Positions 12,744 to 64,000 of a DNA stretch of 64,000 bases are shown piece by piece. The notes beneath the pieces are model-generated. The model worked only from the letters and a program-made list of their open reading frames with translations. It had not been told where the DNA came from and did no database searches. Position numbers and translations under genes: made by a program. This stretch comes from an uncultured Candidatus Saccharibacteria bacterium (GTDB lineage Bacteria > Patescibacteriota > Minisyncoccia > 2-02-FULL-40-12 > GWA2-44-9). Numbering within the stretch: the stretch's first letter is position 1; each line of letters begins with the position of its first letter. The stretch is from NCBI GenBank assembly GCA_964513645.1, contig CAZENF010000002.1:8090-72089 (forward strand), written 5' to 3'.

Positions 12744-12814
12744 TTCAAGTATCCTTAATATAAAATTATAAAGATTAATATTTTGATATGAATCTTTATT
12801 AATCTTTATTAATA

Positions 12815-15234: not shown

Positions 15235-15236
15235 AA

Positions 15237-47922: not shown

Positions 47923-47960
47923 TAAAACCACCTCTTTGCAATAAGCAAAGAGGTGGTTTT
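47923..47960. terminator. Strong bidirectional terminator with a 16-bp perfect stem
   Basis: aaaaccacctctttgc-aata-gcaaagaggtggtttt. Confidence 0.7.
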
Positions 47961-47970
47961 AATATTTACT

Positions 47971-50900
47971 CTAATATGGCGCGACTTCACGCCACTGGGG
48001 CAGTTTCTGGCCGATATAGAGATTGTTTTGATAGGTACATGAACCAGCATTATCAGTTGCGGTCAAAGAAACAGGAAAAGAACCGTTACCCGTAAATACA
48101 ACGCTGTAAGGCCCTTGAGTCCCTGTACCGGCCGGTGTCGGTACACCGGTTCCAAAATTCCAACTCCATGTCTTTCCCGATGAACTAGGGGCAAATACGG
48201 TCGAATCGGTAAAAGTAACAGGCGAACCGGATACTGGACTTGCCGGACTATAAGTAAAGGCGGTTTGAGGAAATGCATGAACCGGAGTCGTCCAACTTGC
48301 CTGCGATGCCGGCGGATTTACGCCATTAATATATGTACTCATCTTAACCCATGGCGACCAAACTCCGCTTGAATTCTGAACTCTGCCCCAGGCGGTATAT
48401 GTCGTATTCCAGACCATCTGACATGTCGTCTGTGGGCGGGTATCGGTCGGATTTAAAGTTACATTCGTGGAATTGTTGACCGGACAATTCGAAGTACTGC
48501 TTGAAAAAGTAGAGCCGCTGGTTATCGCTACCGGCACAGTTCCAGACTCCCATTCAGGATTCATGCTTGCACTGGCAACATTCGGATCGCTGACCAAATC
48601 ATTATCAATCATTGCTTGATAATTGATAGCGTTGAGACTTCCCGGATCTGTATAGATTCCCGAGACGGTAGCATGGACACCGGCACTGCAATAATAACCA
48701 TTGTTAACAGTCACGGTCATATTTGAAACACTTGGAGTCGGCACCGCGACATTGACAGTTACCTGGTCGGTGGCAATTCCTGCCGATCCATTACATGATA
48801 AAGTGTAAGTCGTATTCGCTATCAGGTTTGCGGTCGCAAGTGAGGTATTAACTATCGGGCCGTTAATGAAGTACCACTTCTGATTTGACGGTCGCCAGAC
48901 CGCAACTTCGGCCTTGCCTTTACTGTGATAGTATCCAGGGACAGGAACATCACCCGGAATACCGAGTTTTAAATTATAAGAGGCGGTGTAATTGCTTTCC
49001 GAGGTATATATAAACCAGTCCCCGGTACTTGGACGATATACGGCCAGGTCGGCCTTGCCGTCGCCGGTATAGTCTGCAGGTACCGGAATATCGGTTGCGG
49101 TGGCTAAGGCCAAGGTATAGCTGAGGCCGGCAGTCCAATTGCTGTTTGAAGTAAGTACCCACCAGGTTGTACTGGAAGGACGCCAAACAGCCATATCCGT
49201 TTTCCCGTCTCCGGTATAGTCTGCCTGAACAGGAACATCACCGGTCGTACCCCATGCTCTTGTAAAATATGTCTTATTGTTGTCATCGGAATTTAAAACA
49301 TACCAATAACCGGTATCCGGCTGGCCTGCACCAGAACGCCAAACAGCTAAATCTGCTTTCCCGTCACCGGTATAATCGCCTGGAACTGCAAGATCAAAAG
49401 TGGGAGTAGCTCCAAGACCCCAGCTAATATAAGGAGAAGGTGGGACAAGAACTGTATACCAACTCGTATAATTACTTTCCGAGGTCAGAACATACCAAGG
49501 ACCAGAACCGCTTCGCCATTCGCCAATATCTGTTTTTCCGTCACCGGTAAAATCAGCCATAGTCGGAACATCATAATAAGGACTATAAGCCAAAGTGAAC
49601 GGTATCGGAGTAACGTCGGTAACACCGTTTGGCGGAGAATAATCTATCGTCCAGCCGGAAGTTGCACTGTTAAAAATTGCAAGGTCTGTCAAGCCATCCC
49701 CGTTAAAATCACCCGACAACGGTGAACCTATCGCAGCTTTAAGATTAAGAGTTGTCGAATCGACTATTTGCTCGGCTGATTCGGGACGGCCGCCGGCAAC
49801 GCCAAATTGAAGCGAATAGGACGCTGGCCCAGGAGAAATAGTGCAACTATCGACGCTCGAACAGTTTACTCCGGTAGTTCCGCACCATCTTAAATTAGTA
49901 GAAGTGCCGGAATTAACACTGCAAGGACCGTTTGAAAAAGCTCCTGCTCCATTCGACTGACAAGTTGCATCAGCTGTCGCAGCGTTGGCATTGATAGTTA
50001 TCGCTGTGTCTGTGGAGTTACCGCCTGGATCAACACAGGTCAGATAAAAAGTTTTGCTTGGAGTTGTTATCGGACCCGTGGAATAAGTTCCGGAAGTTTG
50101 TCCATTATATAATTTTGCACTAAGTATCATGGTTCCGGGATCATACAAAGAAGTATCCAGACCGAGCGGGTAAGTTGGCGGTACGGTGCTGGTATAAAGT
50201 AAATTTCCATTTTGATAATATTTAACGGTTCCAAACTCAACCGCCACTCGCAAAAGGTCTCCGGCTGTATACGCTGCCAAAGGTCCTGCTTTCAAACTCC
50301 CTCCTTCGAATATATACAGATTGCCATCGACGTTGGGATATATCCCGTAATCAATGTCAGTATAGCTTTGATTTGAATCGCCATTTCCAAGTCCGGCAAT
50401 TTTATATTTAGTGGTATCGCCGACCACAAACTCAACATAGCCATCCCCCGAGGATATGGTTTGAATTGAAGAAGCACCTGTATCCCAGGCAGCCACTCCA
50501 CCTGTTTTAGTTATGGAACTTGCACCCACAGTGATATTTGCTGACGGTAGAATATTTTGCCATTGAACATTTGCGGCAGTCGGAGATACAAGTCCTGTTC
50601 CGATGTGGACATTGGATAAAGTCGCTCCGATACTGTAGAAAGATGAATCGAACAACAAAGGATAGGTCGGGAGGTTGGGGCTTGTGAACAAAAGCATCCC
50701 GTTCTTAAAATATTTAACCACACCCTTCTGTATTGCAACCCTGAAAATATCGCCTGCAACATAAGTCCCGACCGCAGCCCCGCCGTTTTGGAAAGCTGCG
50801 TTCTCTATGATATAGACATGGCCGTCTCCAGCAGCATAGAGAGCATATTTCATCTCAACATAACTCGGCGTGGTATCACTCGAGCTAAACCCTCCCATTT

Positions 50901-52161
50901 TATAAGCAGTGTTCTCAACGGTAGTAAATTCGACATAGCCGTCGCCGGAAGCGATAGTCTGGGTAGATGAGGCGCCTGCATCCCAGACATTATTTGTACC
51001 TCCGGTTTTGGTCAAAGTATTCCCGGTCACCGTTAAGGCGGTTACGTTCTGCCAAGTCGCATTGGACGGCGCACTCGTTGCCAGAGCACAGTATTGGGAA
51101 TTGGGACAAGGATTAGAAGCACCTCCGCACCATCTCAAATTAGTAGAAGCTCCCGAATCAACCGTGCAAGGACCATTTGAATAAGCTCCGGCTCCATTAG
51201 ATTGGCAGGTAATATCAGCTACCGGCGCTGGAACCAAAAGATTAAAATTAGTCTGAAAATTTACCCAGCCGGAAGATAAAGTTGTTAGGCCATTATAGAG
51301 ATAACCGGAAATATCATTATCGATGACCGGGGTTGTGTAGGGCAACTGGAAACGGACGGTAAAAACCGTAGTTCTGCTGTTTCCTGAAACAGAAGTAGTA
51401 CAAGCATCGAGATGGATGTTGGCGTCGCCATAACCTGGCTGAACCGCCGCATGGCCGCCTCCGGTACAGGCCCGGTAATCCTGATAGCCGTTCCAAGCAT
51501 CTAAATAATACCAGGTCAAATATCCCCTGTATAAAGGAGCGTTCTCACCTTGAAGATTTATAAGAACATATTCATGAGTGATATTCGCGCTCCCGGTGGA
51601 ATCGGAGCCGGTAATCGTAATATTATACTGGGTCGTATTGTCGGTCGTAACCAAAGGAGAACTGATGGTAACATTGTCTACGGTTGGGGGAGGGGCGGCG
51701 TATGCGGCCTGGGCATAATAAGCTGCCTGCCCATAATAAGTCGACTGGGCGTAGTAGGATGATTGGGAATAGCCATACGTTCCTTGGGCATAAGGATATG
51801 TTGCTTCGGCATAAGGATATGTTCCTTGGGCATAAGGATATGTTGCTTCGGCATAAGGATATGCTGCTTCGGCATAAGTTATAATACAAGATTCAAAAGG
51901 CCCGCAAGCATAAGCAGGGGCCGCACATCCGCCGCACGAATAAGTCGTCCCATAACAAGGGTCGTCGTTTCTTGTAGCACAAGAAGTACACACGTCAGAA
52001 CTATAAACCGGGTTGTCTCCGCAAGGAGGATCGTTATTACCATGACATGTGTATCTTAAAAGACACACCATTGACGAAGCGTCTTTAACGCTTAAAGACA
52101 AGCTCAGAAATATAACAGCCACAGGAACTAAGACCAAAAAAACAGCATACCGATGTTTCAT
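47971..52161 (-). CDS. Giant secreted protein of 1396 aa with a Cys-rich N-domain, Tyr-rich tandem repeats, a duplicated module and six FG-GAP/VCBS-like repeats
   Basis: N-terminal transmembrane/signal segment. A Cys-rich block DDPCYGTTYSCGGCAAPAYACGPFESC. YPYAEAT x5 and YYAQ-type repeats. A CQSNGAGAxSNGPCxVxSGxSTNLRWCG module occurs twice. Repeats DFNGDGLTDLAIF, DFTGDGKTDIGEWR, DYTGDGKADLAVWR, DYTGDGKTDMAVWRP and DYTGDGKADLAVYRP follow. Confidence 0.7.
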   Translation of the reverse strand: MKHRYAVFLVLVPVAVIFLSLSLSVKDASSMVCLLRYTCHGNNDPPCGDNPVYSSDVCTSCATRNDDPCYGTTYSCGGCAAPAYACGPFESCIITYAEAAYPYAEATYPYAQGTYPYAEATYPYAQGTYGYSQSSYYAQSTYYGQAAYYAQAAYAAPPPTVDNVTISSPLVTTDNTTQYNITITGSDSTGSANITHEYVLINLQGENAPLYRGYLTWYYLDAWNGYQDYRACTGGGHAAVQPGYGDANIHLDACTTSVSGNSRTTVFTVRFQLPYTTPVIDNDISGYLYNGLTTLSSGWVNFQTNFNLLVPAPVADITCQSNGAGAYSNGPCTVDSGASTNLRWCGGASNPCPNSQYCALATSAPSNATWQNVTALTVTGNTLTKTGGTNNVWDAGASSTQTIASGDGYVEFTTVENTAYKMGGFSSSDTTPSYVEMKYALYAAGDGHVYIIENAAFQNGGAAVGTYVAGDIFRVAIQKGVVKYFKNGMLLFTSPNLPTYPLLFDSSFYSIGATLSNVHIGTGLVSPTAANVQWQNILPSANITVGASSITKTGGVAAWDTGASSIQTISSGDGYVEFVVGDTTKYKIAGLGNGDSNQSYTDIDYGIYPNVDGNLYIFEGGSLKAGPLAAYTAGDLLRVAVEFGTVKYYQNGNLLYTSTVPPTYPLGLDTSLYDPGTMILSAKLYNGQTSGTYSTGPITTPSKTFYLTCVDPGGNSTDTAITINANAATADATCQSNGAGAFSNGPCSVNSGTSTNLRWCGTTGVNCSSVDSCTISPGPASYSLQFGVAGGRPESAEQIVDSTTLNLKAAIGSPLSGDFNGDGLTDLAIFNSATSGWTIDYSPPNGVTDVTPIPFTLAYSPYYDVPTMADFTGDGKTDIGEWRSGSGPWYVLTSESNYTSWYTVLVPPSPYISWGLGATPTFDLAVPGDYTGDGKADLAVWRSGAGQPDTGYWYVLNSDDNNKTYFTRAWGTTGDVPVQADYTGDGKTDMAVWRPSSTTWWVLTSNSNWTAGLSYTLALATATDIPVPADYTGDGKADLAVYRPSTGDWFIYTSESNYTASYNLKLGIPGDVPVPGYYHSKGKAEVAVWRPSNQKWYFINGPIVNTSLATANLIANTTYTLSCNGSAGIATDQVTVNVAVPTPSVSNMTVTVNNGYYCSAGVHATVSGIYTDPGSLNAINYQAMIDNDLVSDPNVASASMNPEWESGTVPVAITSGSTFSSSTSNCPVNNSTNVTLNPTDTRPQTTCQMVWNTTYTAWGRVQNSSGVWSPWVKMSTYINGVNPPASQASWTTPVHAFPQTAFTYSPASPVSGSPVTFTDSTVFAPSSSGKTWSWNFGTGVPTPAGTGTQGPYSVVFTGNGSFPVSLTATDNAGSCTYQNNLYIGQKLPQWREVAPY

Positions 52162-52682
52162 TGAATTGAGACTAATAATATTTTTACTTTAATATTGTCT
52201 TTTGTTGTCTGCTCCATCTCTATTCTACCCTGGTAAATTACGCCTTGAATTTCTATGATGGCAGATCTTTCATCCCTGATGCCGCCCAACAATTTCCAGT
52301 CGTTGGAGTAAAGCACTTTAAAATAATCGAAATACGGTTGAGGAAGATTGCTTTTGATATCGAAATTAAATTCGTATCCATTTTTACCATTTTCGTATTG
52401 TACTTCTCTGGCTTGAAAGTTAGTGGCATTATTTGGTTTTAAAAAATTAAGTTCTGTCTGGAACGTGGCCGCACTTTTTTCTGACGCAATCGGAGGAATA
52501 ACAAGCTTTCCTGCATAACCGGAAATATTGAGTGATAAATTAGTATCCGGACTGGGAGCAGGTGTAGCCGAATTTACCAATAAATGACTGTCTTGTTTCT
52601 GGGTCTCGTACTTTGAGATCATAAAAAAAACCGAGGCCGCCAAAATCATCAAACCGAATATAATACCTTTTTTATCATTCAT
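52158..52682 (-). CDS. N-terminally membrane-anchored partner protein of 174 aa, paralogue of 54749..55279
   Basis: It overlaps the upstream giant gene by 4 nt. Its KPNNATNFQAREVQYENGKNGYEFNF compares with KINGATNLRISKVNYINGKQGYTDSF in the 176-aa paralogue. Confidence 0.5.
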   Translation of the reverse strand: MNDKKGIIFGLMILAASVFFMISKYETQKQDSHLLVNSATPAPSPDTNLSLNISGYAGKLVIPPIASEKSAATFQTELNFLKPNNATNFQAREVQYENGKNGYEFNFDIKSNLPQPYFDYFKVLYSNDWKLLGGIRDERSAIIEIQGVIYQGRIEMEQTTKDNIKVKILLVSIQ

Positions 52683-52732
52683 ATTTTAATAAAATGTAAA
52701 TTCTCTAAACTATATATATTATAACGCACCCC

Positions 52733-52781
52733 TAAAAATAAAAAAGCCGGTTTAGCAACCTTCTGATCGCTAAACCGGCTT
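52733..52781 (-). terminator. Rho-independent terminator with a 13-bp stem
   Basis: aagccggtttagc...gctaaaccggctt, followed by a T-run on the minus strand. Confidence 0.65.
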
Positions 52782-52796
52782 GAAATTTGAGGTGCA

Positions 52797-53276
52797 TTAT
52801 TTGAGCACCCCGTAGAACTTGATCCAGCCGCTGACACTTACTTCTTTGTTTGACCTAAAACCTACAAACTTATTGCCATCCAGTCCGTTAACTTCCAACT
52901 CGATACTTTTGGGATCGACTTCCATGTTTGAGTTCCGTACAACAATAACCCAGCACTTGTAACCACTGTGAATGTCGTTCCAAGACAAATCACAATGATC
53001 GGATCCTGGCCTGTTCTCCATAATAGCAATCTCGGTGTAAGCATCCGGTGGCCCTGGCACAGATCCAACCTCGGCCTTAAGGACCCCTTTCCCGAAATCA
53101 TTCAGGTCCACTTCGTAGCCACCCCACGGACCCGGCCAGTTAGTTCCAAAGATCTGCCGGAGCTGATATTCGGACGGCGTGTTATGAGCACTTGGAGCTA
53201 CGGGATTGAGGGATCCCCGATCGCAACCAGCAATCAATGGGACCACTAAAACCAGGGCCACGGAAAATAACTTCAT
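52797..53276 (-). CDS. Hypothetical lipoprotein
   Basis: A signal peptide with the lipobox LIAGC. Confidence 0.5.
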   Translation of the reverse strand: MKLFSVALVLVVPLIAGCDRGSLNPVAPSAHNTPSEYQLRQIFGTNWPGPWGGYEVDLNDFGKGVLKAEVGSVPGPPDAYTEIAIMENRPGSDHCDLSWNDIHSGYKCWVIVVRNSNMEVDPKSIELEVNGLDGNKFVGFRSNKEVSVSGWIKFYGVLK

Positions 53277-53411
53277 TACATCCTCCTAATTTCAGACTTT
53301 TTTAAGGATATCTTGTAAATGACCTATATGGATGAATTATACCACAAATTACCCAAAAAAGCAACGAGTTCTCCGGTTCCTGCCAAAGACACGATAAAAC
53401 GTATTTAATCC

Positions 53412-54752
53412 TCAAGGTATCGGCGGCCTCTGGCCTCTAAGAATGGAGTCGACGAGGTAGACGAAACCTTTGCCGATAAGGACGATTATAAACCCGATAA
53501 GAGCCCAGAAGAGGATATTCTTGGCCTTTTGGATCTCACCAGGGTTACCTCTCGAAAAGACGAACCTTATGCCGGCGTATAGGATAAGGATGACTATTAA
53601 TGAACCTGCGATGTTTAATATCCAATTGGAGATGAGGGTTATTAGTCCAAAGATATCATAAGGCTGGCCGTAGAGAGGATTTACTATCCTCCAGGGGATG
53701 CTGACGGGTTGGCCGGGGTTGATAGGGCCCGGACCATTATTACAAGCACTGCTACCTGTCTGGCAAATGGTAACATTGGCGGACTGGGTTATGGTATAGT
53801 CGGGCCACAAAGCCCCCCCGTCACATTCTATCTTTGCGTAGTAATATTTAGTCCCGGTCGATTGGGGAGGATAAAAAGTAAAATTAGCACTTTCGTTTAA
53901 GTTCACTAATTGTTGAGTATTATCGAAATTAGCTACCCGCCGATAAATGAGAGGAACACCATTATCGTCAAAAATTGACCACAAAACATCTGTTGGCGGA
54001 TTACCAAAGGTGCTGTTGCACTTACCCCAGTCTATCAGTAAGGCCGGATAGACGTTTATACCGACTGTGGCATTTAGATTATCTCCGGAATTAGCTTGTT
54101 TTGGTTGAATATCAAATGTGACATCGACTCCAGGAATGGCTTGTGGGTTGGGAGTTGAGGTGGGGGGAATAGGCGTTGGGGTGGTATATGTTGCTTGAGC
54201 ATAATAGGCTGATTGGGCATAGTAGGATGATTGAGAATAGCCCGGGCCATATGATGCTTGGGCATAGTAGGCAGCTTGGGCATAGTAGGCAGCTTGGGCA
54301 TAGTAGGCAGCTTGGGCATAGTAAGTCGATTGACCGTAGTATGCGGACTGGCCATAATAGGATGACTGACCGTAGTATGTTGATTGGGCATAGTAAGATG
54401 CCTGACTATAGTAAGACGCTTGAGCATAGTAGCTTGACTCTGAATAATACGCCGCCTCTGAATACGCGGCAACGCAACTATAAAAAGGTCCACAGGATCT
54501 TCCGGCTGAACATCCACCGCAGGTATAGGTTGCACCGCCACAGGGATCATCTGTTCTTTGAACGCATGTCCCGCTGCAAGCTGACATGACCGGACAATCA
54601 CCACAAAAACCGGTTCCAGGCCCGCAGTTAGGAGAACATTGGTAGCCAGTAATGCAGGAGGTCTGGGCAGAAACATACCCGCTAAAATACAAAAACGCCA
54701 GGATTACCAAGATAAAGGTTAAGATCGTTGTGAAAAGATATTTTTGTCTCAT
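53412..54752 (-). CDS. Secreted Cys-rich / Tyr-repeat protein with a C-terminal two-helix hairpin resembling VirB2/TrbC-type pilins
   Basis: The N-terminal domain is paralogous to the 1396-aa protein (DDPCGGATYTCGGCSAGRSCGPFYSC). It carries (S/A)YYAQ x~14 repeats. The C-terminus GLITLISNWILNIAGSLIVILILYAGIRFVFSRGNPGEIQKAKNILFWALIGFIIVLIG has two transmembrane helices separated by a short charged loop. Confidence 0.55.
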   Translation of the reverse strand: MRQKYLFTTILTFILVILAFLYFSGYVSAQTSCITGYQCSPNCGPGTGFCGDCPVMSACSGTCVQRTDDPCGGATYTCGGCSAGRSCGPFYSCVAAYSEAAYYSESSYYAQASYYSQASYYAQSTYYGQSSYYGQSAYYGQSTYYAQAAYYAQAAYYAQAAYYAQASYGPGYSQSSYYAQSAYYAQATYTTPTPIPPTSTPNPQAIPGVDVTFDIQPKQANSGDNLNATVGINVYPALLIDWGKCNSTFGNPPTDVLWSIFDDNGVPLIYRRVANFDNTQQLVNLNESANFTFYPPQSTGTKYYYAKIECDGGALWPDYTITQSANVTICQTGSSACNNGPGPINPGQPVSIPWRIVNPLYGQPYDIFGLITLISNWILNIAGSLIVILILYAGIRFVFSRGNPGEIQKAKNILFWALIGFIIVLIGKGFVYLVDSILRGQRPPIP

Positions 54753-55279
54753 GGAAGGGTCACAATATATATATCGATATCAACCTTGCCGTTTCCTTTG
54801 GGATAAAATACGATCCGGCTTTGATAATTAAAAGTTTTTAGATCGATAACGGACAAAGCGTTGTTGTGGGCCGCATACACAACCTGCCAATCCTGATTAG
54901 AATTAAATTTTAAAGAATATTCGGAAAAGACATTTTCCATTGACCGGCCTACTTCAAAAGAATCAGTATAACCTTGTTTACCATTGATATAATTAACTTT
55001 GCTAATGCGGAGATTCGTTGCACCGTTAATTTTAAAAATATTAAAAACTGGGGGTAATGAATTTACTCCTGTTCGAGAAGCGACTCTCGGAAAGTCTATA
55101 TTGTCACCGAGTACGGAATTTCTCACACCGGAAACGGAGGGCAACGGTGATTTAGGCCCAATTTTGTCGGAATTCGTTTGGGTCCTACTCTTGATTATAA
55201 TGAGATACGAGGACCCTAAAGCCATGATTATAATAAACGTGCTTATTATAATAGTTTTCTTGGAGGCCATACTATTCAA
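54749..55279 (-). CDS. Membrane-anchored partner protein of 176 aa, paralogue of 52158..52682
   Basis: A 4-nt overlap with the upstream gene, an N-terminal transmembrane segment, and colinear similarity to the 174-aa protein. Confidence 0.5.
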   Translation of the reverse strand: MNSMASKKTIIISTFIIIMALGSSYLIIIKSRTQTNSDKIGPKSPLPSVSGVRNSVLGDNIDFPRVASRTGVNSLPPVFNIFKINGATNLRISKVNYINGKQGYTDSFEVGRSMENVFSEYSLKFNSNQDWQVVYAAHNNALSVIDLKTFNYQSRIVFYPKGNGKVDIDIYIVTLP

Positions 55280-55328
55280 TTTTATCTAAATTTTGACAAG
55301 CAAACAAGTACAAAGTCAACAATGAGTT

Positions 55329-56528
55329 CTACTTAAAACATTTTGTTTTCCAGGGTTCGGGTAAGGCGTTGCACATATTGATGAAATCCGAAGAGCCCTG
55401 ATGAAAATTATATTTTGAATAGAAAAGGAGTTCATTGTAACAAGTGTCCCCCACTCCGAACTCCTCGGCTGCCCGGCAAAAGGCAACCGATTTATCTATA
55501 AGCCGGTAGTCCGTTTCTATGAACCTGGAGGCCGAATCGGCAAAACATTGGCCTTTGATATTCTGGGGTAAAGCCCGACATAGAGTTTCAATTGTCGGCT
55601 GGTCAAAATTCACCTGAACCGGTATCACAAAGAACATTGCACTCAAACATCTGTTCTTTAAATTTTGGTCCCGGGTAAAGGAACAAAATTTGACCAGGCC
55701 GTCCGGAGTTAATATCTGACTACGTGATAGCGGCCAGGATTCATTGTGGCATGAGGCCGCAGGAATACTTGAGAACTTGTCGCACAACTTAAAAGCCGCC
55801 GCCGGTGTGTGGGGAGCGATATTTTTCACCAAAGCAAAATCTTCATCTTCAAGCGGTTGGAATATTTGCATAAAATTCCCGTCGTAACATACCTGAAGAA
55901 AATTGCGTCCGTCCGGTTTAACCGCGACTTTCTGGCAAAGGTCATTGGACTTTTTAGCATCCGCTTCGGTAATATACATCAGAAGATGTCCCAATGCATG
56001 GTAACAACTGGCCTGCTCCATTCCGGTCGGATGCCAATTCTGTCTTTCTTCACAGACCCCCTGAAGTTGGGGCAAAATGCTGTTTATTTGACTGTCATCA
56101 AGCGCCTCCGTCCTGAATCTCTCCTGAAAAGCCCCGTGGATACAGCCATTAGAACAGAGCCCGCTCGGACACTCGGTCACAACATCCGCCCATTTCGAAG
56201 GATCTTTTTTTGTTTCCCGCGCACTTAAGTTATGACCCAGAACATGACAGAACACATAACTTTTGTCCTCGTCCTGAACAAGTCTGGTAACCTGAAAAGC
56301 ATCTTGCATTGAAATATAGTCCATCAGTTTCGGTATCTCGGTGTCATAGCAGGTCGGTTTATAAGATTCTTTGGAACACTTAACCACGATCTGGTCGGCA
56401 TATTCCTGAAGGGTTTTGACAGATCCGGTTTTAGAGATCTTAAAAAAATAAATACCGTAAGCCGAGGCCGCTCCGACAAGGATTATAAATAGAGAAAGGT
56501 AAAAAGTTTTGGATGAAAAAAGTTTCAT
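55329..56528 (-). CDS. Secreted Cys/His-rich protein, paralogue family member 1
   Basis: An N-terminal transmembrane segment, FCHVLGHNL and CYHALGHLL motifs, and about 22 Cys. Confidence 0.5.
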   Translation of the reverse strand: MKLFSSKTFYLSLFIILVGAASAYGIYFFKISKTGSVKTLQEYADQIVVKCSKESYKPTCYDTEIPKLMDYISMQDAFQVTRLVQDEDKSYVFCHVLGHNLSARETKKDPSKWADVVTECPSGLCSNGCIHGAFQERFRTEALDDSQINSILPQLQGVCEERQNWHPTGMEQASCYHALGHLLMYITEADAKKSNDLCQKVAVKPDGRNFLQVCYDGNFMQIFQPLEDEDFALVKNIAPHTPAAAFKLCDKFSSIPAASCHNESWPLSRSQILTPDGLVKFCSFTRDQNLKNRCLSAMFFVIPVQVNFDQPTIETLCRALPQNIKGQCFADSASRFIETDYRLIDKSVAFCRAAEEFGVGDTCYNELLFYSKYNFHQGSSDFINMCNALPEPWKTKCFK

Positions 56529-56532
56529 AAAT

Positions 56533-58032
56533 TTATTGACCGGAACAGAATTTTTGATAATCTTTGTCGACCGATGAACAGATCTCGGTCCTCTTTTGAG
56601 AATTGTACCAAATGCTCAACCTCGTCAAAATATATCTGTAACACTCGTTTCGTTCATCGTCCTTAAGTTCGGGCCGTTTACAAAATGCCAAACCCTTAAC
56701 ATATTCTTTGCCAGGTTCTCCGTATTTCATGTGTCCGCCGGCCAATCCTTCTACACACGGCAGTCTTAGGTCACCAGAAACAGAGTGGCATAAATTTATT
56801 CCATCCAAAATATCAAAATCCTGGCTACGAGTATGCAATCTTATGTATTCATGGAACAAACTTACCGCGGTCATTTCCTTAACCGTGTAGCCGAAGAGCT
56901 CGAGATTTTCCTTATCACCATCAGAAGGAATTGTTTCGATCTTTTTTACTTCTTCTTTAAAATTCTCACGATAAAGAATTTCAATTGCCGGAAGCATATT
57001 GGTATAGCAAGCTTCCTTGTTGTTTATCGGCTGGGTTTTACAGAAAGAAAAAGGGTCTTTAGCCAACTCATCTAATTGATATTTATCATTGTGAGACAGG
57101 ATCTCAATAGAGTTATAGGCCCCGGAAATGCAGCGGTACCTTTCCATCGGATTGCTTGCCACGCCATCACATATCTTCAATCCGGGTTTGATCATTTTTT
57201 CAGGGTCTCCCCAGGCCTCGGTATCGTCGCCATCCACTGTCCCGTGGCCTATTCCATGAAAACACGCTCCCCCGGCATCGGAGGTTTGTCCGCTTAGTTG
57301 TTTTTGGGCATAATCACAAAATTCTTTGGCCTTGGACGGGTCTCCGGTTTTTTTCAAAAGCGCTTCCATAAAACCATGATAAAAACCATAAGCGCAGTAT
57401 GATGTCTTGGGGCTTAATTTGATATCTTGATGTTGAGAAAATCTTTCATAAGCCGCCTGACCGAGACGATGAACAAAACCGTGGCAGTTGGCGGCAAAAT
57501 ACGGGTCAGACTCGTAAAGCTGGGCTAATTGCTGGAAAGCAACGTCAAGACCTTTGGTTTCGAGGGTGTTGTCCAAGGAATCTTCCCAGCATTGGATCTT
57601 GTCGTTTTGTTGAGGATCATTGCAGTTAATTTTTACGGCCGAACCGTTACGGTCGAGAACATTTATCACTCCTCTTGAAGAAGGATCTAAGTGGTTATGA
57701 AATTTCCAGCTGCCGATCCTATCAAATTTAAAACTCCATGATTTATCGGGGTCTACCGGGTGCTTCGGGTCAAATTCAGGATAAATGTCGTGTGTCGGAT
57801 GCGGATCGGAAGCAGGCCAGAATGCTTGGTCTAATTGGGTCGTAAAGATTACAGTATCTCCCTGGTTGATGGTCAATGTTGAAGGGAAAAAACCGTCTTT
57901 GGTCATAGAAACGGTATAATTTTTGGAATTAGCAGGAAAATATTTATAAAAAAATCCAAAAACATAAATGAGAGTTAAGAAAAGAACCAAGACGATTATT
58001 TTAAGCTTCGTGTTTTGTAAAATTTTTATCAA
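56533..58032 (-). CDS. Secreted protein with a cupredoxin-like N-domain plus a Cys/His-rich domain, paralogue family member 2
   Basis: N-terminal transmembrane segment. TINQGDTVIFTT...WPASDPHPTHDIYPEF...SWSFKF..GSWKFHNHLDP is a cupredoxin/EfeO-like beta-sandwich pattern. It also carries CHGFVHRLG and CFHGIGHG. Confidence 0.5.
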   Translation of the reverse strand: MIKILQNTKLKIIVLVLFLTLIYVFGFFYKYFPANSKNYTVSMTKDGFFPSTLTINQGDTVIFTTQLDQAFWPASDPHPTHDIYPEFDPKHPVDPDKSWSFKFDRIGSWKFHNHLDPSSRGVINVLDRNGSAVKINCNDPQQNDKIQCWEDSLDNTLETKGLDVAFQQLAQLYESDPYFAANCHGFVHRLGQAAYERFSQHQDIKLSPKTSYCAYGFYHGFMEALLKKTGDPSKAKEFCDYAQKQLSGQTSDAGGACFHGIGHGTVDGDDTEAWGDPEKMIKPGLKICDGVASNPMERYRCISGAYNSIEILSHNDKYQLDELAKDPFSFCKTQPINNKEACYTNMLPAIEILYRENFKEEVKKIETIPSDGDKENLELFGYTVKEMTAVSLFHEYIRLHTRSQDFDILDGINLCHSVSGDLRLPCVEGLAGGHMKYGEPGKEYVKGLAFCKRPELKDDERNECYRYILTRLSIWYNSQKRTEICSSVDKDYQKFCSGQ

Positions 58033-58047
58033 AGATGTGATGATTTT

Positions 58048-59484
58048 TTATTTTACCGGGGCACATTTCTTATTATATTTAACATCGATCTGAGAACAAA
58101 TATATTTTTGTTTCTCTGCTGGGTAAATGTTGCTTTCCTGCCAGATCAAATTATTATAACAAGCGATTTTTTGTTCTTCGGTAAGAAGAGGGTTAGCGCA
58201 AAACGCTAAGGGCTTGGTATATTCCAGATCAGGCGTACCAACCTCGATCAAACCCTCAATGTATCCTTCAATACACGGGGTGACCAGTCTTTTCTGAAGA
58301 GATTGGCAAACTTTTACCTGTTTTGAATAATCAGCCAGGTCCCACCCCGATTGTCCGTTAACATCCGACAAACTTCTCATGGTAGAAATGGCGTATTCAT
58401 CCTCTTTTATTGCTTCGACAAATTTAATAGCTTTTAAGAAATCGGAGTTGCTTATCGCCATTAGGTACGTGTTCATCTCCTCATAGCAAGTCAGTTTGGC
58501 ATAATCTTTTTCTAAGCTCCGACAATAAAAAAGAGGGTCGGACTCGTTCTTGCGCAACTTTCCTTGATTATATGCAATTGCCATTGCATTGAACACTCCG
58601 CTTCCGCAGCGGTTAAGCATCTGGGGGTTAGGCGCAACCTTTTCGCACAAGGCCAGAGCAGGCATCACGACCGATCTTTCATTCGGCCAATCATTGTCAT
58701 CATCAACCGCGCCATGACCGATACCATGATAACATTTCCCCAAAGTATCAGCACTTACATTTTTCATCTTATCGTAGGCATAATTACAAAAATCCCTTGC
58801 CACACTCAAGTCATTAGTTTCATGAAGAAGAGTTTGCATAAAGCCGTGATAAAATCCGAAACTGCAATAAGAAACTTTTTCCGGTAAGGTAAAGTTTTTG
58901 TGTTCAGAAAATAAATAATACGCTTTTTCTCCCAACTTATGGACCAAGCCGTGGCAGTAGTATTTAAAATCCGGGTCATTGTTATATGAGTCCGAGATCA
59001 TATTAAATGTTCCTTCCAATCCTTTGCTCTCAATAATAGAATCGATGTTGGTGTCCCAGCATTGAGCCCTATTTTCCTCCGAAACATGTACGCAATCAAC
59101 ATAAGGAATCTTACCGTCAGAGCCACGAACTTTGACTATCCCCTGGTAGTAAGGATCGAGGTGGTCATGGAATTTCCAATTACCGGCTTTATCGAACTTA
59201 AAGCTCCAAGATTTATCAGAGTCTATCGGACGTTTGGGATCAAATTCCGGGTACAAGGTGTGGGTCGGATGGATATCCGAAGCCGGCCAGAATGGTTTCG
59301 TAAGTCGGGTAGTGAAAACTACCATGTCGCCCTGGTTAATAGTTATGTTTGAGGGTGAAAAGCCGTCTTTGGTTAGAGAAATGTAGTAAGTGGCTGGCGA
59401 CTGATGGATAAAAAATTTAAACAGGTAAAAAGCCCCTAAAACAGCACAAAAAAGAATGAGAAGTAAGATCAGACGGTATTTCAT
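58048..59484 (-). CDS. Secreted protein with a cupredoxin-like N-domain plus a Cys/His-rich domain, paralogue family member 3
   Basis: Colinear with the 499-aa paralogue: ITINQGDMVVFTT...WPASDIHPTHTLYPEF, CHGLVHKLG and CYHGIGHG. Confidence 0.5.
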   Translation of the reverse strand: MKYRLILLLILFCAVLGAFYLFKFFIHQSPATYYISLTKDGFSPSNITINQGDMVVFTTRLTKPFWPASDIHPTHTLYPEFDPKRPIDSDKSWSFKFDKAGNWKFHDHLDPYYQGIVKVRGSDGKIPYVDCVHVSEENRAQCWDTNIDSIIESKGLEGTFNMISDSYNNDPDFKYYCHGLVHKLGEKAYYLFSEHKNFTLPEKVSYCSFGFYHGFMQTLLHETNDLSVARDFCNYAYDKMKNVSADTLGKCYHGIGHGAVDDDNDWPNERSVVMPALALCEKVAPNPQMLNRCGSGVFNAMAIAYNQGKLRKNESDPLFYCRSLEKDYAKLTCYEEMNTYLMAISNSDFLKAIKFVEAIKEDEYAISTMRSLSDVNGQSGWDLADYSKQVKVCQSLQKRLVTPCIEGYIEGLIEVGTPDLEYTKPLAFCANPLLTEEQKIACYNNLIWQESNIYPAEKQKYICSQIDVKYNKKCAPVK

Positions 59485-59493
59485 CGACGATAA

Positions 59494-60699
59494 TTATCCC
59501 ACCCTTAATACTTTTTTGCATTCGGCCTTGTGAATTTCAGGCACCGTAGAACAAAATGACTTATAGTATCCGGGGTCTTTGATATAGTAGCTGACCATTC
59601 CAAAGAGATCTTCAAAACAAGGGTACTGGTAAACCTGGTCCGAAATAGAATTGCAAAACCTTATTGCACCGTCCGGCTTATTCTCCCCTCCCCAGTATAG
59701 AGAGGCGGTCGAATTTTCAATGCACGCCTGTGTTCCGTTCTTGTCATTTGCCAAAAGGCACCAAGCATAAACTTTCTGAAATTGTTCGGTTGTCATATCT
59801 GCAACATTTCTGATGTCCCGGTTCTGAGCCAGGACAATGAACTCTTTGCCAAATCCTCCGTAGCAAATATTCCGGTTTGGATCCGATAGCGGTAATTTAG
59901 AACAATACTGAAATGCTTTTGAGAAATCAGCCGGGCCGGGATGATTAATATCCGCTCCGGCAAATTCGAAAAGATACGGCGTTAAATAGGTATAGCACAT
60001 TAATTTCGCCCCGGAAGGGATTAAGTCCGTATCGCAGGGGGTCAGAGCATCATTCTTGGTAAAGTATATCTTTCTCTGACGCCCCCATGCGATCTTGTCG
60101 TGGAATCCCCCGCTTATCATCTCCATTATCGAACCTCCGACACATTGCGGATATTCCTGATAATTATATTCCGGCGTACCGGTCTTTTGGCACATCTCCA
60201 CCGTTTTTTTAAGGTCGTAATCCAGATACGCCAGGATACCATGACCAAGTCCGTGGAAACACATGGTATAGGCACCTGACCCCCCCGGAGCATGTCTGCA
60301 GGCATCAGAGATTGCGTCAAGAGCACTTTCGCCCTTATCAAAAAAGAGTCCAACCACGATAGAGTGCGAACAGGCGTTCCTGAAATCTTGGGTACATTTA
60401 TAAATACCTTTCAAACCTTCTTTTTTATACAAAACATCGCCGATCGCATGACCAAGGAGATGGAAGTCCGTATTCGGAGGCAAGTCAGCGGTTTTTAAAA
60501 CCTCAAAAGCATATTCAGGACTTTTTTGATTTGCGAGGTCCTCAAAATATTTTTTAAGCTCACTGAAAGACTGGGAATGTTTTTTCACGTCCTGAAGTTC
60601 TGGATAAGATGTTTTCTTAGAAGAGTAAGACCATACTAAAAGACCTGCCACCAGAACCAATAAAAAAAGACCTGAAAATATTTTATAAGACAGTTTCAT
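59494..60699 (-). CDS. Secreted Cys/His-rich protein, paralogue family member 4
   Basis: An N-terminal transmembrane segment with FHLLGHAIG and CFHGLGHG. Confidence 0.5.
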   Translation of the reverse strand: MKLSYKIFSGLFLLVLVAGLLVWSYSSKKTSYPELQDVKKHSQSFSELKKYFEDLANQKSPEYAFEVLKTADLPPNTDFHLLGHAIGDVLYKKEGLKGIYKCTQDFRNACSHSIVVGLFFDKGESALDAISDACRHAPGGSGAYTMCFHGLGHGILAYLDYDLKKTVEMCQKTGTPEYNYQEYPQCVGGSIMEMISGGFHDKIAWGRQRKIYFTKNDALTPCDTDLIPSGAKLMCYTYLTPYLFEFAGADINHPGPADFSKAFQYCSKLPLSDPNRNICYGGFGKEFIVLAQNRDIRNVADMTTEQFQKVYAWCLLANDKNGTQACIENSTASLYWGGENKPDGAIRFCNSISDQVYQYPCFEDLFGMVSYYIKDPGYYKSFCSTVPEIHKAECKKVLRVG

Positions 60700-60723
60700 T
60701 AAAATATCCCGGCAAAGAATGGT

Positions 60724-61206
60724 TTATTTGGAACTTCGTGGTTTAGGGATCGATTTTGGCGTTCCGTTGAAGAAAACAGGGGCTGTATAACGGATCTCGG
60801 CCGCGGTGAATTTTTTAGTTCCCGTTATATTATCCGTAGCAATTATAACAACATTTGAATTGTTCGGATTATAGAGATCGGCAAGACTACCTTCTAAAGA
60901 ACCGGATTTCAAATTAGTCGGCGTATATTTACCATCTGGAGGAGGTATCAAGGTTATTTTTACAAATTTGGTATTGGAATTTGTTATAACCGATACCACT
61001 TCAGTTGGACCATAGGATTTGCCGTCAATCATGACCGTACCAGCAACAGATAGTTGAGTTTCGGTTATTCCGGCTATTTTACCCCTAAATTCAGAACTTT
61101 TTATATTGTCATTTTTAGACGGGAGACCTTTTGCAAAAAGTAAAACGACTGCGATCAGAAAGATCATTATCGCTATACTTGTCCCTTTCCGGCGTCGGGT
61201 ATGCAT
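60724..61206 (-). CDS. Hypothetical secreted protein
   Basis: An N-terminal transmembrane anchor followed by an S/T/N-rich domain. Confidence 0.4.
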   Translation of the reverse strand: MHTRRRKGTSIAIMIFLIAVVLLFAKGLPSKNDNIKSSEFRGKIAGITETQLSVAGTVMIDGKSYGPTEVVSVITNSNTKFVKITLIPPPDGKYTPTNLKSGSLEGSLADLYNPNNSNVVIIATDNITGTKKFTAAEIRYTAPVFFNGTPKSIPKPRSSK

Positions 61207-61221
61207 AATTTAAGTATAAAT

Positions 61222-62655
61222 TTAGTTCCGAATATTATCAATAACGGAACTGATATGAGCTTTGAGGTCCTGAATCTTGATCCTGTCCTGCTTGGCAGTA
61301 TCCCTGTCACGAATCGTAACAGTATCTTTCAGCTCGGGTTTTTCTCCCAAAGTATCAAAATCGATGGTGATAGACAAAGGTGTACCTATCTCGTCTTGCG
61401 AGTAATAACGTTTACCGATGTTTCCCCGGTCGTCCCAGACAACGTTGAAGTGTTTCTTGAGGTCTTTATAGATCTCTCTGGCTTTTTCGACGAGTTCAGG
61501 CTTATTTTTAAGCAGAGGAAAAACCGCCGCTTTGTACGGCGCAAGCTTCGGGCTAAGTTTTAAAACGACCCTGTCCCCGTCCTCGTGATAAGCGTCGCAT
61601 AGAACAGCCAAAGCAATGCGGTCAACTCCGGCTGAAGGTTCTATTACATAGGGAACAAAAACTTCCCCGGAGTCAGGATCCCTGAACGACATATCCTGGC
61701 CTGAACTTTTCTGATGAGACTGGAGGTCAAAATCTCCCCGGTTGGCGATGCCTTCTATTTCTTTGGTGCCGAACGGGAAATCATATTCAATGTCGATGGT
61801 TTCTTTTGAATAATGGGCTCTTTCTTCTTTGGTCTGTTCTCTTTTGTGAACGTTTTTTAAGCCTATTTTCTTGTACCATTCAAAACGTGAAGCAACCCAT
61901 TCTTTAAAATATTTCTCATCTTCACCTGGTTTAACAAAATATTCTAACTCCATCTGTTCGAATTCCCTTGTCCGGAAAATATAATCTTTAGGGTTTATTT
62001 CATTACGAAAAGCTTTGCCTATCTGGGCAATACCGAACGGAACCCTAACTCTTGTTGAGTCGACGACATTATTGAAGTTAACAAAAATACCTCCGGCAGT
62101 TTCCGGACGAAGATAAGCAACCGAGGCGGTGTCTTCGGCCGGTCCGACAAATGTTTTGAACATTAAATTAAATGATTTGGCTTCAGTAAATTCTTTTCCT
62201 CCACAAACTTCGCATCCATTTTCCTTCAATTCCAAGGTTCTTTTTTTAAGAATTCTCTTACCCTCCTCTGCTACCTGCTCTCCAATGCTTTTTTCTATAT
62301 TTCTTTTGGGTCGGAATTGGTCTTCGGGTTTATATATATCTTCGGGCCTATATCTTTTATGACATTTCTTGCACTCAATTAATGGGTCTGAAAATCCTCC
62401 GACATGGCCGGAAGCAACCCAGGCTTGAGGATTCATTATCAAAGCGGCCGATAAGCCGACGACATCATCTCTTTCCCGAACAACCGACTTCCACCACTCC
62501 TGTTTAAGATTAAATTTGAGTTCTGCTCCAAGCGGCCCGAAATCATAAAAACCTCCGATGCCACCGTATATCTCGGAACCCGGAAATATAAAACCGCGCC
62601 GTTTGCATAAGGCAACTACTTTATCCAACAAATTTTGCTCTTTATTTTTTTCCAT
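61222..62655 (-). CDS. glyQS: Glycyl-tRNA synthetase (alpha2 single-chain type)
   Basis: A class II core with FPGSEIYGGIGGFYDFGPLG and an anticodon-binding domain. Confidence 0.92.
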   Translation of the reverse strand: MEKNKEQNLLDKVVALCKRRGFIFPGSEIYGGIGGFYDFGPLGAELKFNLKQEWWKSVVRERDDVVGLSAALIMNPQAWVASGHVGGFSDPLIECKKCHKRYRPEDIYKPEDQFRPKRNIEKSIGEQVAEEGKRILKKRTLELKENGCEVCGGKEFTEAKSFNLMFKTFVGPAEDTASVAYLRPETAGGIFVNFNNVVDSTRVRVPFGIAQIGKAFRNEINPKDYIFRTREFEQMELEYFVKPGEDEKYFKEWVASRFEWYKKIGLKNVHKREQTKEERAHYSKETIDIEYDFPFGTKEIEGIANRGDFDLQSHQKSSGQDMSFRDPDSGEVFVPYVIEPSAGVDRIALAVLCDAYHEDGDRVVLKLSPKLAPYKAAVFPLLKNKPELVEKAREIYKDLKKHFNVVWDDRGNIGKRYYSQDEIGTPLSITIDFDTLGEKPELKDTVTIRDRDTAKQDRIKIQDLKAHISSVIDNIRN

Positions 62656-62671
62656 ACTACCTGATACTATT

Positions 62672-64000
62672 TTATTGTACTATTCCCTGCCCCGGCCGGT
62701 CAGACAGGTCATTTGTCGTAACCGGGTCTCTGGTAATTGTAATCGTCTGATTTGAAAAACTGTCAGTTCCGGCAAACTTGGGTCCGCCGATAAGCTGGAT
62801 GGAATTTCCTTTGTCGCTGTCTGCCGGTATAACTTTGACCCTGAAACTGGCTTCATACTTGCTACCAAGAGTTCCGGTCCCGTAAGGCAGTTTGGGCAGG
62901 TCCCAGACAACCGTCCCGGTGCTTGAATTATAGGCCGGTGACGGAAGGCCGTTGTTAGCCCATACCATATTATCCCATTGTACATTAGCCGGGAGCTTTG
63001 CGGAAACCTCGACGTTATTAATATCATTGCCGGGATTGGTCAGTTGCCAGTGAACATTGAACGAGGTCATATCTCCTACGTGCATCGGCAAAGGACCGAC
63101 CGACTGGAAATTCGGGTCATTATAGTAGACCGATTGGTTTAAGGCCGGCTGACTGCTTATTTTGGTGACAAGATTGGAAGATGCCGAGATTTGATTGCCG
63201 TCAAAACCTTCCGGAACATTCGGAGTCATGAATACGGATGAAACTTTTACGAAACGGTCCTGGGAAGAACCAGGTATTGCAGATGAGAAAGTCGGCTTGA
63301 GAGAGACTGAAAAATTTATCTGGCCGCTCATTCCAGGAACAAAATTATTAAAATCAGAAATAGTGGTCGAATCCCAGGTGATTGTTTTGGCCGAACTGTC
63401 ATATAGACCGCCGTTGGTGTTGAGGGTTCCAAGATTGAAAGTATCTCCTTCAAGTTTTACAACCAGGTTCATGCCCGAAAAATTTATATTTGAATTATTC
63501 GAATATTGGACGGTATAGGATAGGTTATCACCAAGAGAAGCGGTATAATCTGTCGAGTTATTTACTTGCATCCCCAAACCAAGAATGGGGTTCGATATCA
63601 CGGTTGTGGCCGAAGACTTCTGATAGTCAACGTAATCGCTGTCCAATTTTCGTTTCAGGATTACAGAGACCATTTTGTTGTCACCCTCGCTGCCGGTTAA
63701 AATTCCATTGACGGTTATCCTTCCGCCTTTGCCCTTTTTTATCGTATCAATATGCCAAGTATTATCACCGAGAACTGGCTGTGGGTCATAGCTTTTTGGA
63801 CGAAAACCGTCGGGATAATCAAACTCGACCATCAGATCAGAGAGATCGTCATCAGAAGTATTTCTATAATCGAGGATATACTGGGCGGTAGAACCCGAAA
63901 CAGAATTAGGTGGAGCGACCAGGGTTAAAGTTATCGGAGTTTTAACTATTGTGGTCGAAAAGGTTATGCTTTTCTCAAAATTAGAACTTAAGCTTCCCGC
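62672..64000 (-). CDS. Repeat-rich secreted/surface protein, N-terminus beyond the window
   Basis: I translated 63833-64000 on the minus strand by hand and found no stop, so the ORF continues upstream of the M at 63832. It is S/T/N-rich with beta-sandwich-like repeats. Confidence 0.5.
   Translation of the reverse strand, partial: AGSLSSNFEKSITFSTTIVKTPITLTLVAPPNSVSGSTAQYILDYRNTSDDDLSDLMVEFDYPDGFRPKSYDPQPVLGDNTWHIDTIKKGKGGRITVNGILTGSEGDNKMVSVILKRKLDSDYVDYQKSSATTVISNPILGLGMQVNNSTDYTASLGDNLSYTVQYSNNSNINFSGMNLVVKLEGDTFNLGTLNTNGGLYDSSAKTITWDSTTISDFNNFVPGMSGQINFSVSLKPTFSSAIPGSSQDRFVKVSSVFMTPNVPEGFDGNQISASSNLVTKISSQPALNQSVYYNDPNFQSVGPLPMHVGDMTSFNVHWQLTNPGNDINNVEVSAKLPANVQWDNMVWANNGLPSPAYNSSTGTVVWDLPKLPYGTGTLGSKYEASFRVKVIPADSDKGNSIQLIGGPKFAGTDSFSNQTITITRDPVTTNDLSDRPGQGIVQ

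Follow-up and report, generated by a model that had tools for sequence, protein, structure and literature searches.

A tandem array of predicted anchored cysteine- and histidine-rich proteins and a recurrent two-gene cassette, side by side in a stretch of Patescibacteria DNA

We present here an analysis of positions 47971–64000 of a window of 64 kb, by which we mean the whole stretch of 64,000 nucleotides from contig CAZENF010000002.1 of an uncultured Candidatus Saccharibacteria bacterium (assembly GCA_964513645.1). The twelve open reading frames (ORFs) of this 16-kb stretch are named g1–g10, glyS and g12, and all coordinates are window positions unless another locus is given. On the whole, the stretch is probably a set of independent modules of exported proteins, juxtaposed in this lineage and lying on the strand that holds nearly all genes in this half of the window: a tandem array (g9-g8-g7-g6), two copies of a two-gene cassette (g5-g4 and g2-g1), and several singletons. 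The array and the cassette, as judged from sequence comparison, are each conserved on their own, recurrent, and mostly undescribed. A preliminary description of this DNA had taken the genes for one surface or attachment apparatus; a synteny check in 71 array loci and 18 pilin loci speaks against it.

The stretch is regarded as a lineage-specific juxtaposition because its whole neighbourhood is not conserved in other loci, an outcome that the preliminary description itself had named as evidence against a single apparatus. A scan of one genome per species gave 71 array loci from other species, which together with the window make 72. By tblastn, g1, g3, g4 and g10 have no counterpart in any of the 71, and g2/g5-like genes are present in three of them. 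Likewise, array members, cupredoxins and g2/g5-like genes are all absent from the 18 metagenome loci with g4-like pilins. In addition, the housekeeping gene glyS sits inside the unit, and a Yanofskybacteria locus (L005) has the same order of g12, glyS and array and is without g5 to g1; its g12 homologue upstream of glyS is 46% identical, and glyS is 50-53% identical to the counterparts in L005 and in a further locus, L006. A single dedicated apparatus for the cell surface or host attachment, made up of all twelve genes and expressed as one, is very unlikely in view of these results, and synteny largely refutes it. The idea draws on the facts that ten of the twelve consecutive genes encode exported or anchored proteins, that the genes from g12 to g5 are closely spaced (4-49 nt) and no terminator stands before 52781, and that one array elsewhere (L092) lies directly downstream of a type IV pilus cluster. 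Two observations do weigh against independent modules. The hairpin scan finds no terminator between g6 and g5, and co-transcription of g6 with g5-g4-g3 is possible, an arrangement met in none of the other loci examined. Moreover, the g2/g5-like cassettes of L022, L026 and L042 stand at 2 to 4 kb from the array, on its downstream side, because of which there may be a loose surface-gene neighbourhood around arrays and cassettes; three co-occurrences among 71 loci are nevertheless about what chance would give in genomes of ~700 genes, by a rough estimate rather than a computation.

The shared direction of the genes, formerly read as a property of the cluster, is shown to be regional. All 12 ORFs lie on the minus strand, and the exception that had been made for the glycyl-tRNA synthetase gene does not hold, since glyS is on the minus strand as well. 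In the whole window 56 of 66 ORFs have this orientation, and an uninterrupted minus-strand run of 29 ORFs extends from 33.9 kb to the window end, taking in the housekeeping genes gatB, thyX, gyrB and that of IMP dehydrogenase. The view that the proteins are secreted or anchored fares better: hydropathy gives one N-terminal hydrophobic segment in each of g1 to g10, and thus a predicted signal or anchor in 10 of the 12 genes. The 4-nt translational overlaps said to hold the pieces together are found solely at the g5/g4 and g2/g1 junctions (ATGA in the latter), while the remaining junctions are gaps of 4–135 nt, including 4–49 nt for the intergenic gaps from g12 to g5 and 135 and 114 nt for those flanking g3. 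The strong terminators described at module boundaries are both real 17-bp hairpins on the minus strand. The one at 47923–47961, palindromic and with a T-rich tail, is the predicted terminator of g2-g1; the other, at 52744–52781, is intrinsic-terminator-like (17 pairs, 8 of them GC, then TTTTATTTTT) and ends the g12-to-g3 unit upstream of g2. However, only the latter is internal, and as the sole strong terminator inside the cluster it parts g3 from g2, that is, it falls between the cassette copies and does not separate the array from the cassette. Runs of co-directional genes for secreted proteins in genomes of the Candidate Phyla Radiation (CPR) therefore call for caution in annotation before they are read as single machines.

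The array consists of four minus-strand genes, assigned below to three of five subfamilies. The gene g9 (59494–60699; 401 amino acids, aa) is of subfamily A and encodes an N-terminal membrane anchor followed by an all-alpha Cys/His domain, with an HxxxH motif at H80-H84 and CFHGLGHG at 147–154. Both g8 (58048–59484; 478 aa) and g7 (56533–58032; 499 aa, with a TTG start) are of subfamily B, in which a cupredoxin, Cys-less in g8, stands between the anchor and the helical domain; the corresponding motifs are H178-H182 and CYHGIGHG at 251–258 in g8, and H184-H188 and CFHGIGHG at 257–264 in g7. The fourth, g6 (55329–56528; 399 aa), represents subfamily C and again has an anchor and an all-alpha Cys/His domain, with H95-H99 and CYHALGHL at 175–182. 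The earlier picture of four tandem paralogues sharing C[FY]HG[IL]GHG is therefore right about g7, g8 and g9 and about the paralogy of all four, but the motif of g6 departs from it. A hidden Markov model (HMM) of the family matches all four genes with E-values of 1e-78 to 1e-186 (7e-90 for g6). In pairwise comparison g7 and g8 are clearly related (39% identity, E 1e-133) and the similarity of g6/g9 and g8/g9 is weak, so that among the paralogies proposed before, g7/g8 is clear, as are g2/g5 and the N-termini of g1/g4, while g6 to g9 as a whole are joined by the family HMM.

Matches to described families are few in the array. Neither g6, g9 nor the helical domain has a significant match in Pfam or NCBIfam, and the scores of g7 and g8 against PF13473 Cupredoxin_1 (15.0 and 16.1 bits) are below its gathering threshold of 27 bits. 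Nevertheless, the earlier statement that two members are fused to cupredoxin-like domains agrees with these sub-threshold matches of g7 and g8 and with the cupredoxin profile A2 (E 3e-47 for g8); a precomputed PF13473 match is also carried by about a third of the homologues listed. As a side observation, the public (NCBI) call for g7 (P0001, 457 aa) leaves out the first 42 codons from the TTG start onwards, and with them the membrane anchor. It looks N-terminally truncated, because all 29 aligned homologues carry the anchor (window 57907–58032).

We then turn to the array family in Patescibacteria as a whole. Searches of a word-indexed database return 548 homologues for g7 and 1099 for g9. All named ones belong to Patescibacteria, which confirms the earlier guess of a CPR-type genome, and they are annotated as hypothetical, "plastocyanin" or "cupredoxin domain-containing" proteins. 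With a profile of the helical domain, 5,569 representatives are retrieved at 50% clustering (E<=1e-3). Clustering of the ORFs places 418 proteins from the 72 loci, window included, in a single family, with a median per locus of 5 copies that are 300 aa or longer, a maximum of 15 and a minimum of 1; 47 loci have at least four copies, and 325 of 343 copies share the strand of the anchor gene. Under stricter clustering the family falls into five recurring subfamilies. Among them, A (the g9 type) occurs in 42 loci, usually single and usually first; B (cupredoxin plus helical domain, as in g7 and g8) in 69 loci; C (the g6 type) in 53 of the 71 loci; D, of ~344 aa, in 29 loci; and E, a stand-alone cupredoxin of ~133 aa, in 23 loci. 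The usual order is A, D, then C and B, then E, and the window has the minimal set A-B-B-C. Judging from these comparisons, g9-g8-g7-g6 appears to be the minimal form of a tandem array conserved across Patescibacteria, mainly in Parcubacteria/Paceibacteria.

The array paralogues seem to be ancient orthologous subfamilies rather than recent duplicates or variable antigens, because each array gene of the window is 44–59% identical to its orthologues elsewhere and at most 39% identical to its neighbours. For example, the best match of g8 in another lineage is 50% identical and the best orthologue of g6 is 56% identical, and one array subfamily holds 49–59% identity across lineages. Fusions of the helical domain are mostly with itself, with 2 to 8 copies per chain, and some of these chains end in the same Cys-less cupredoxin; the sole other fusion is with one GH3 hydrolase with HEAT/LRV repeats. 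In that protein (P0275, 3580 aa, on an 831-kb ENA contig) eight tandem helical domains are followed by the GH3 glycoside hydrolase domain and LRV/HEAT repeats, and further proteins of 1.2 to 2.1 kaa have 4 to 6 copies of the helical domain. In the locus L092 (GCA_022563395.1, 671-kb contig, 1–21284) the array begins immediately downstream from a full type IV pilus cluster comprising PilO, PilB, PilT, PilC, five pilins and PilD; its order there is a short cupredoxin-like gene, A, B and further members, and genes of GT2/methyltransferase and PMT_2 glycosyltransferase type lie in between. Searches of the literature on Patescibacteria cupredoxins, Parcubacteria blue copper proteins and cysteine-rich CPR families yielded no description of the array family. 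By sequence it is thus an undescribed family, in which a variant cupredoxin is joined to a domain without a relative in Pfam, NCBIfam or the PDB.

The helical domain of the array proteins, of ~350 aa, is modelled as all-alpha and solenoid-like, and the AlphaFold2 models are confident (mean predicted local distance difference test, pLDDT, of 88.6 for g7 and 92.5 for g9). The domain has no relative, and hence none of a catalytic fold, in the PDB libraries searched, nor does it match the Sel1 or TPR profiles or the Hcp structures. Its conservation was evaluated in an alignment of 344 family members from all subfamilies (MAFFT --auto). The positions conserved in at least 75% of the sequences are almost only His, Cys and Gly. 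In g7 numbering they include H184/H188 (HxxxH), H259-x2-G262-H263 and, in part, H219, together with Cys at 213, 239, 257, 288, 301, 331, 342, 415, 426, 451, 464, 485 and 496. In particular, H184 is present in 99%, H188, H259 and H263 each in 97%, and G262 in 100%; six of the Cys positions reach 100% and four more 96–99%. The two HxxxH motifs, invariant in the domain, are placed on neighbouring helices.

The cysteines of this domain tend to be lost in pairs, for instance 485/496 (phi 0.95), 137/148 (phi 0.87) and 415/426 (phi 0.70). Because such neighbours are lost together, we infer that they form disulfide staples, which would fit an extracytoplasmic location. A DsbA-like gene stands beside the array in five loci, and CPR bacteria carry disulfide machinery of the MdbA/VKOR type (bioRxiv 10.1101/335083). 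The Helicobacter cysteine-rich proteins, with Sel1-like repeats and one disulfide per helix pair, resemble the array domain in being secreted alpha-helical repeat proteins in which neighbouring Cys pairs are conserved.

The cupredoxin of the array is related to the blue copper proteins and has lost their ligands. In g7 it covers residues 36–127 (57652–57927, minus strand). The domain of the g7/g8 type shows the cupredoxin beta-sandwich fold, and its profile matches amicyanin with E 1.8e-9; in the HMM alignment to amicyanin, however, the His-Cys-His-Met ligand set of type 1 copper is not found. Opposite Cys92 of amicyanin stands Asp (Asn in g7), the residues opposite His95 and Met98 are not conserved, and no Cys is invariant. 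Hence the Cys, the Met and the second loop His that bind type 1 blue copper in amicyanin and plastocyanin are absent from the array cupredoxin. Unlike those proteins, it has four other invariant His, with HPxH in one strand region and HxH at the ligand loop. These are H43, H46, H77 and H79, invariant in 14 cupredoxin domains; within the motifs FWPASDxHPTH and HDH they correspond to H78, H81, H112 and H114 of g7. A further difference, both from amicyanin/plastocyanin and from the Cys-less cupredoxins of the EfeO/FtrB type (PF13473), is that the array domain is fused to, or encoded beside, the helical domain that has no known relative.

As to the role of the array, an extracytoplasmic metal-binding (copper-type) or redox function of g6–g9 is the reading that, judged from conservation and context, we tentatively consider most likely. 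According to this proposal each array protein would be tethered by its one N-terminal helix, the proteins would be located side by side at the outer side of the membrane, and they would bind a transition metal, copper-like, through their His sites, so as to serve in metal handling or redox reactions outside the cytoplasm. Elsewhere this module is extended by stand-alone copies of its cupredoxin and by a small anchored protein with an invariant His as its predicted mature N-terminus. The latter is the c1 family, the commonest neighbour outside the array family, found in 25 loci, always beside a cupredoxin-bearing gene, and absent from the window (for example L006 4170–4697 and L012 12713–13231, plus 23 other loci). 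The c1 proteins have ~175 aa, and their signal peptide has an AxA-like cleavage site that is directly followed by an invariant His. They further have a beta-rich domain, in which a Trp is invariant and acidic residues are conserved, and a membrane helix at the C-terminus. We take them to resemble the histidine-brace copper proteins of the YcnI/CopC type, which have a C-terminal anchor, although no profile or PDB match backs membership: Pfam DUF1775 and CopC do not match, and no PDB sequence does. Other recurrent neighbours of the array are TPR proteins, a pair of unassigned membrane proteins, GT-C glycosyltransferases and further unassigned proteins.

Several of these results count against a metal-related role. 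The GT-C glycosyltransferase, TPR and unassigned membrane-protein neighbours and the one GH3 fusion fit a role in envelope building equally well; c1, D and E, which make the copper reading stronger, are missing from the window; no metal transporter was seen as a recurrent array neighbour among the loci examined; and an ArsR-type regulator stands beside the array in two lineages only. This regulator was dropped as evidence of metal regulation, not being recurrent. It is of the ArsR/SmtB type (HTH_5), divergent and next to the array in L094 (9068–9421), with a homologue within 10 kb of the array in L041 (18078–18419).

It is somewhat unlikely, but worth weighing, that the array proteins are structural, i.e. 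a disulfide-hardened alpha-solenoid coat or scaffold, S-layer-like or wall-associated, in which the His residues would serve packing or cross-linking. The all-alpha, solenoid-like form of the proteins, their high copy number with up to 8 domains fused per chain, the GH3 hydrolase fusion, and the neighbouring genes for GT-C (PMT_2) glycosyltransferases, GT2/methyltransferase and TPR proteins are all in keeping with a scaffold. On the other hand, the four His are conserved at 97–99% across five subfamilies that are otherwise less than 25% identical, which is more typical of a functional site, and the persistent fusion or adjacency to a His-rich cupredoxin argues for a site as well; moreover, Pfam finds no SLH or other wall-binding domain. 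We consider it unlikely that the array proteins are enzymes acting on glycans or peptides of the envelope or host, e.g. His-dependent hydrolases or oxidases with the cupredoxin as an auxiliary domain. The conserved His motifs, the GH3 fusion, and neighbours of glycosyltransferase, carbamoyltransferase and GDSL-like type could be explained in this way, but there is no similarity to any catalytic fold in the PDB, and beyond His and Cys no set of acidic or nucleophilic residues is conserved at 75% or more. Finally, rapidly diversifying surface proteins for host recognition or immune evasion, like variable pilin arrays, are hardly credible here, for although the array does consist of tandem paralogues on the cell surface in 1 to 15 copies, its subfamilies appear ancient and keep a conserved order, with identity across lineages (44–59%) above that within the genome (at most 39%).

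The second module is the cassette, which is present twice in the window, and whose two diverged copies are each a translationally coupled pair of a small anchored protein followed by a large exported protein. Copy 1 comprises g2 (52158–52682, minus strand; 174 aa) and g1 (47971–52161, minus strand; 1396 aa), and copy 2 comprises g5 (54749–55279, minus strand; 176 aa) and g4 (53412–54752, minus strand; 446 aa). The first genes, g2 and g5, both encode small, Cys-free, N-terminally anchored proteins, and are paralogues of each other (25% identical, E 1.7e-12); neither has a significant Pfam or NCBIfam match, and their joint profile has no significant PDB match. The second genes share their N-terminal part, which is 40% identical over ~190 aa (E 1.6e-25). 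In g4 a signal or anchor is followed by a 12-Cys module, Tyr-rich (S/A)xYYxQ repeats (54195–54432, minus strand, by Tandem Repeats Finder), a Pro/Thr linker and, after a domain of ~130 aa, a VirB2-like pilin hairpin at the C-terminus. In g1 the signal and the same 12-Cys and Tyr-rich module (residues 1–156) are followed by two internal repeats, recognized by eye in the translation, then by FG-GAP repeats (~790–1060), a PKD domain (1303–1377) and a C-terminal tag. Thus the large protein of the cassette would have a common Cys-rich and Tyr-rich stalk and a variable distal part, with g4 held in the membrane by its VirB2-type pilin hairpin and g1 being adhesin-like.

The Tyr-rich repeat is not confined to the cassette. 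In g1 it takes the form YPYA(E/Q), a 7-residue unit of 21 nt, at 51775–51878, and YY repeats are also found in unrelated exported Patescibacteria proteins, namely an S8 protease with PG_binding_1, an LTD protein, a type IV pilin and the family c6; the repeat looks like a generic stalk or linker module.

By its sequence g4 is a new member of the VirB2-like pilins of Patescibacteria (PF18895), a known family. Residues 369–433 match PF18895 T4SS_pilin at 37.0 bits against a cut-off of 26.6 (E 3.7e-9). NCBIfam gives no match above its cut-offs, and g4 stays below that of NF045849. The hairpin, at residues 351–444 (53421–53702, minus strand), has two hydrophobic helices, 373–391 and 410–428, where the alignment is strongly conserved. 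This confirms the earlier proposal of a 446-aa paralogue with a pilin-like C-terminus and a 176-aa partner paralogue. At the same time it places g4 in a described family, whereas g2, g3, g5, g6, g9, g10 and the helical domain have no significant match in Pfam or NCBIfam. The homologues of g4 share its C-terminus only, and are 47–76% identical there to the C-termini of members of pilin arrays. These relatives form multi-pilin arrays of 2 to 9 genes, commonly with long N-terminal extensions of 264–794 aa; arrays of 2-11 genes have been described for the VirB2/TrbC-like pilins of Patescibacteria (bioRxiv 10.1101/2025.01.22.634366, PMC12102498). While g4 is like these pilins in its C-terminal profile match and hairpin, it differs in that it stands outside any pilin array, shares its N-terminal half with g1, which is no pilin, and follows a g2/g5-type gene. 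In fact, no further PF18895 gene is found in the 64-kb window, and among the 20 window ORFs scanned there is no Pfam domain of a type IV secretion system (T4SS) other than the g4 pilin. Two candidates were rejected in this part of the analysis. The loci L074–L091 were dropped as virB4-type T4SS clusters, since Pfam shows gyrA, CBS, methyltransferase and solute-binding genes flanking multi-pilin arrays, and a gene of ~240 aa ahead of large pilins is not accepted as a relative of g2/g5 (hhalign probability 1%). In L074, the gyrA beside the pilin array (1–2328) has a sub-threshold intein-splicing match at residues 39–75 (E 1.3e-7, 31.9 bits against 35.8).

The other large protein, g1, is by its domains an ordinary giant adhesin-like CPR protein, of which the N-terminal stalk and the C-terminal tag are unusual. 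The Pfam matches are above the thresholds for FG-GAP (61.7 bits against 22.1, 5e-17), FG-GAP_3 (55.0 against 26.9, 1e-14) and PKD (32.8 against 23.5, 7e-8), so that the earlier account of a 1396-aa FG-GAP giant with a 174-aa partner is correct; no sequence relative was found in the PDB. Like the FG-GAP/PKD multidomain surface adhesins, g1 has FG-GAP, PKD and a signal peptide, whereas it differs from them by the Cys-rich and YYxQ stalk, the coupled small partner gene and the C-terminal P-x-W-x-E-V-x-P, and it has neither an LPXTG motif nor a membrane helix at its C-terminus. In fact, the last 60 residues of all 12 proteins contain no LPXTG-like motif.

The cassette pair, i.e. a g2/g5-like gene and then a protein with a Cys-rich N-terminus, is also found in L022, L026 and L042, and the large protein of L022 (L022_16) has YY repeats too. 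The pattern P.[FWY].E[VIL].P occurs three times in the 426,154 residues of all ORFs examined, and each time it forms the extreme C-terminus of a protein encoded after a g2/g5-like gene: PQWREVAPY in g1 (47974–48000, minus strand), PRFREVIP in L022_16 (L022 14038–15357) and PEFEEIAP in L042_16 (L042 13748–15925). Such a C-terminal P-x-[FWY]-x-E-[VIL]-x-P could be a tag for sorting or processing of a kind so far undescribed. If so, the g2/g5-type partner together with a C-terminal P-x-[FW]-x-E-[VI]-x-P tag would make a new route for the sorting or anchoring of large adhesins.

A more far-reaching and doubtful proposal concerns the array and, apart from it, the cassette. In it the A-B-C array, with D, E and c1 elsewhere, would be an unrecognised extracytoplasmic metalloprotein complex specific to Patescibacteria, and independently of this the g2/g5-type partner and the C-terminal tag would mark a sorting or anchoring route for large adhesins. 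Were this true, the disulfide-stapled alpha-solenoid would be a new fold with a four-His centre, combined with a re-engineered, Cys-less cupredoxin, and organisms of minimal metabolism would use the complex to take up or pass on copper, another metal or electrons at the contact with their hosts. The genomes of Patescibacteria are far smaller than 1 Mb, yet many of these bacteria carry 4 to 15 tandem copies of 400–500 aa, or roughly 5–20 kb of sequence; such an outlay in small genomes implies an important function at the cell surface, where hosts are met. For annotation, the family signature HxxxH ... CxHGxGH with paired Cys offers a reusable marker, and the cassette with its C-terminal tag a second one. 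The conserved His-rich site beside a cupredoxin without blue-copper ligands gives a concrete hypothesis that is testable in vitro on soluble domains.

The remaining genes, g3, g10, g12 and glyS, are linked to neither module. The gene g3 (52797–53276, minus strand; 159 aa) encodes a predicted lipoprotein, as had been supposed, with the lipobox IAGC at residues 15–18 and Cys18 after a hydrophobic stretch. The protein of g10 (60724–61206, minus strand; 160 aa) is N-terminally anchored and has no Cys, and its hydrophobic segment accords with the secreted 160-aa protein described before. Both genes are lineage-specific, with no significant Pfam or NCBIfam match and no tblastn match in the 71 array loci, and g10 is unrelated to the short cupredoxin-like gene found ahead of subfamily A in other genomes. 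The class II glycyl-tRNA synthetase gene glyS (61222–62655, minus strand) is identified by Pfam tRNA-synt_2b and HGTP_anticodon, which match the identical gene in L001. At the end, g12 (62672–64000, minus strand) runs off the window edge and is the further repeat-rich surface protein anticipated earlier, with DUF11 repeats (PF01345, E 2.7e-7).

Two features outside the 16-kb stretch are recorded in addition. Positions 12001–14000 of the window form a low-GC island (0.346 against ~0.42 elsewhere), which holds an ORF of 243 aa (12815–13546, minus strand) with a weak match to a transposase-type helix-turn-helix, plus an unassigned one of 147 aa, and adjoins parB and parA (14347–16001). At the start of the window, a large exported-type protein of more than 634 aa (2–1904, minus strand), which runs off the edge, has two Laminin_G_3 / concanavalin-like lectin domains (E 2.7e-43).

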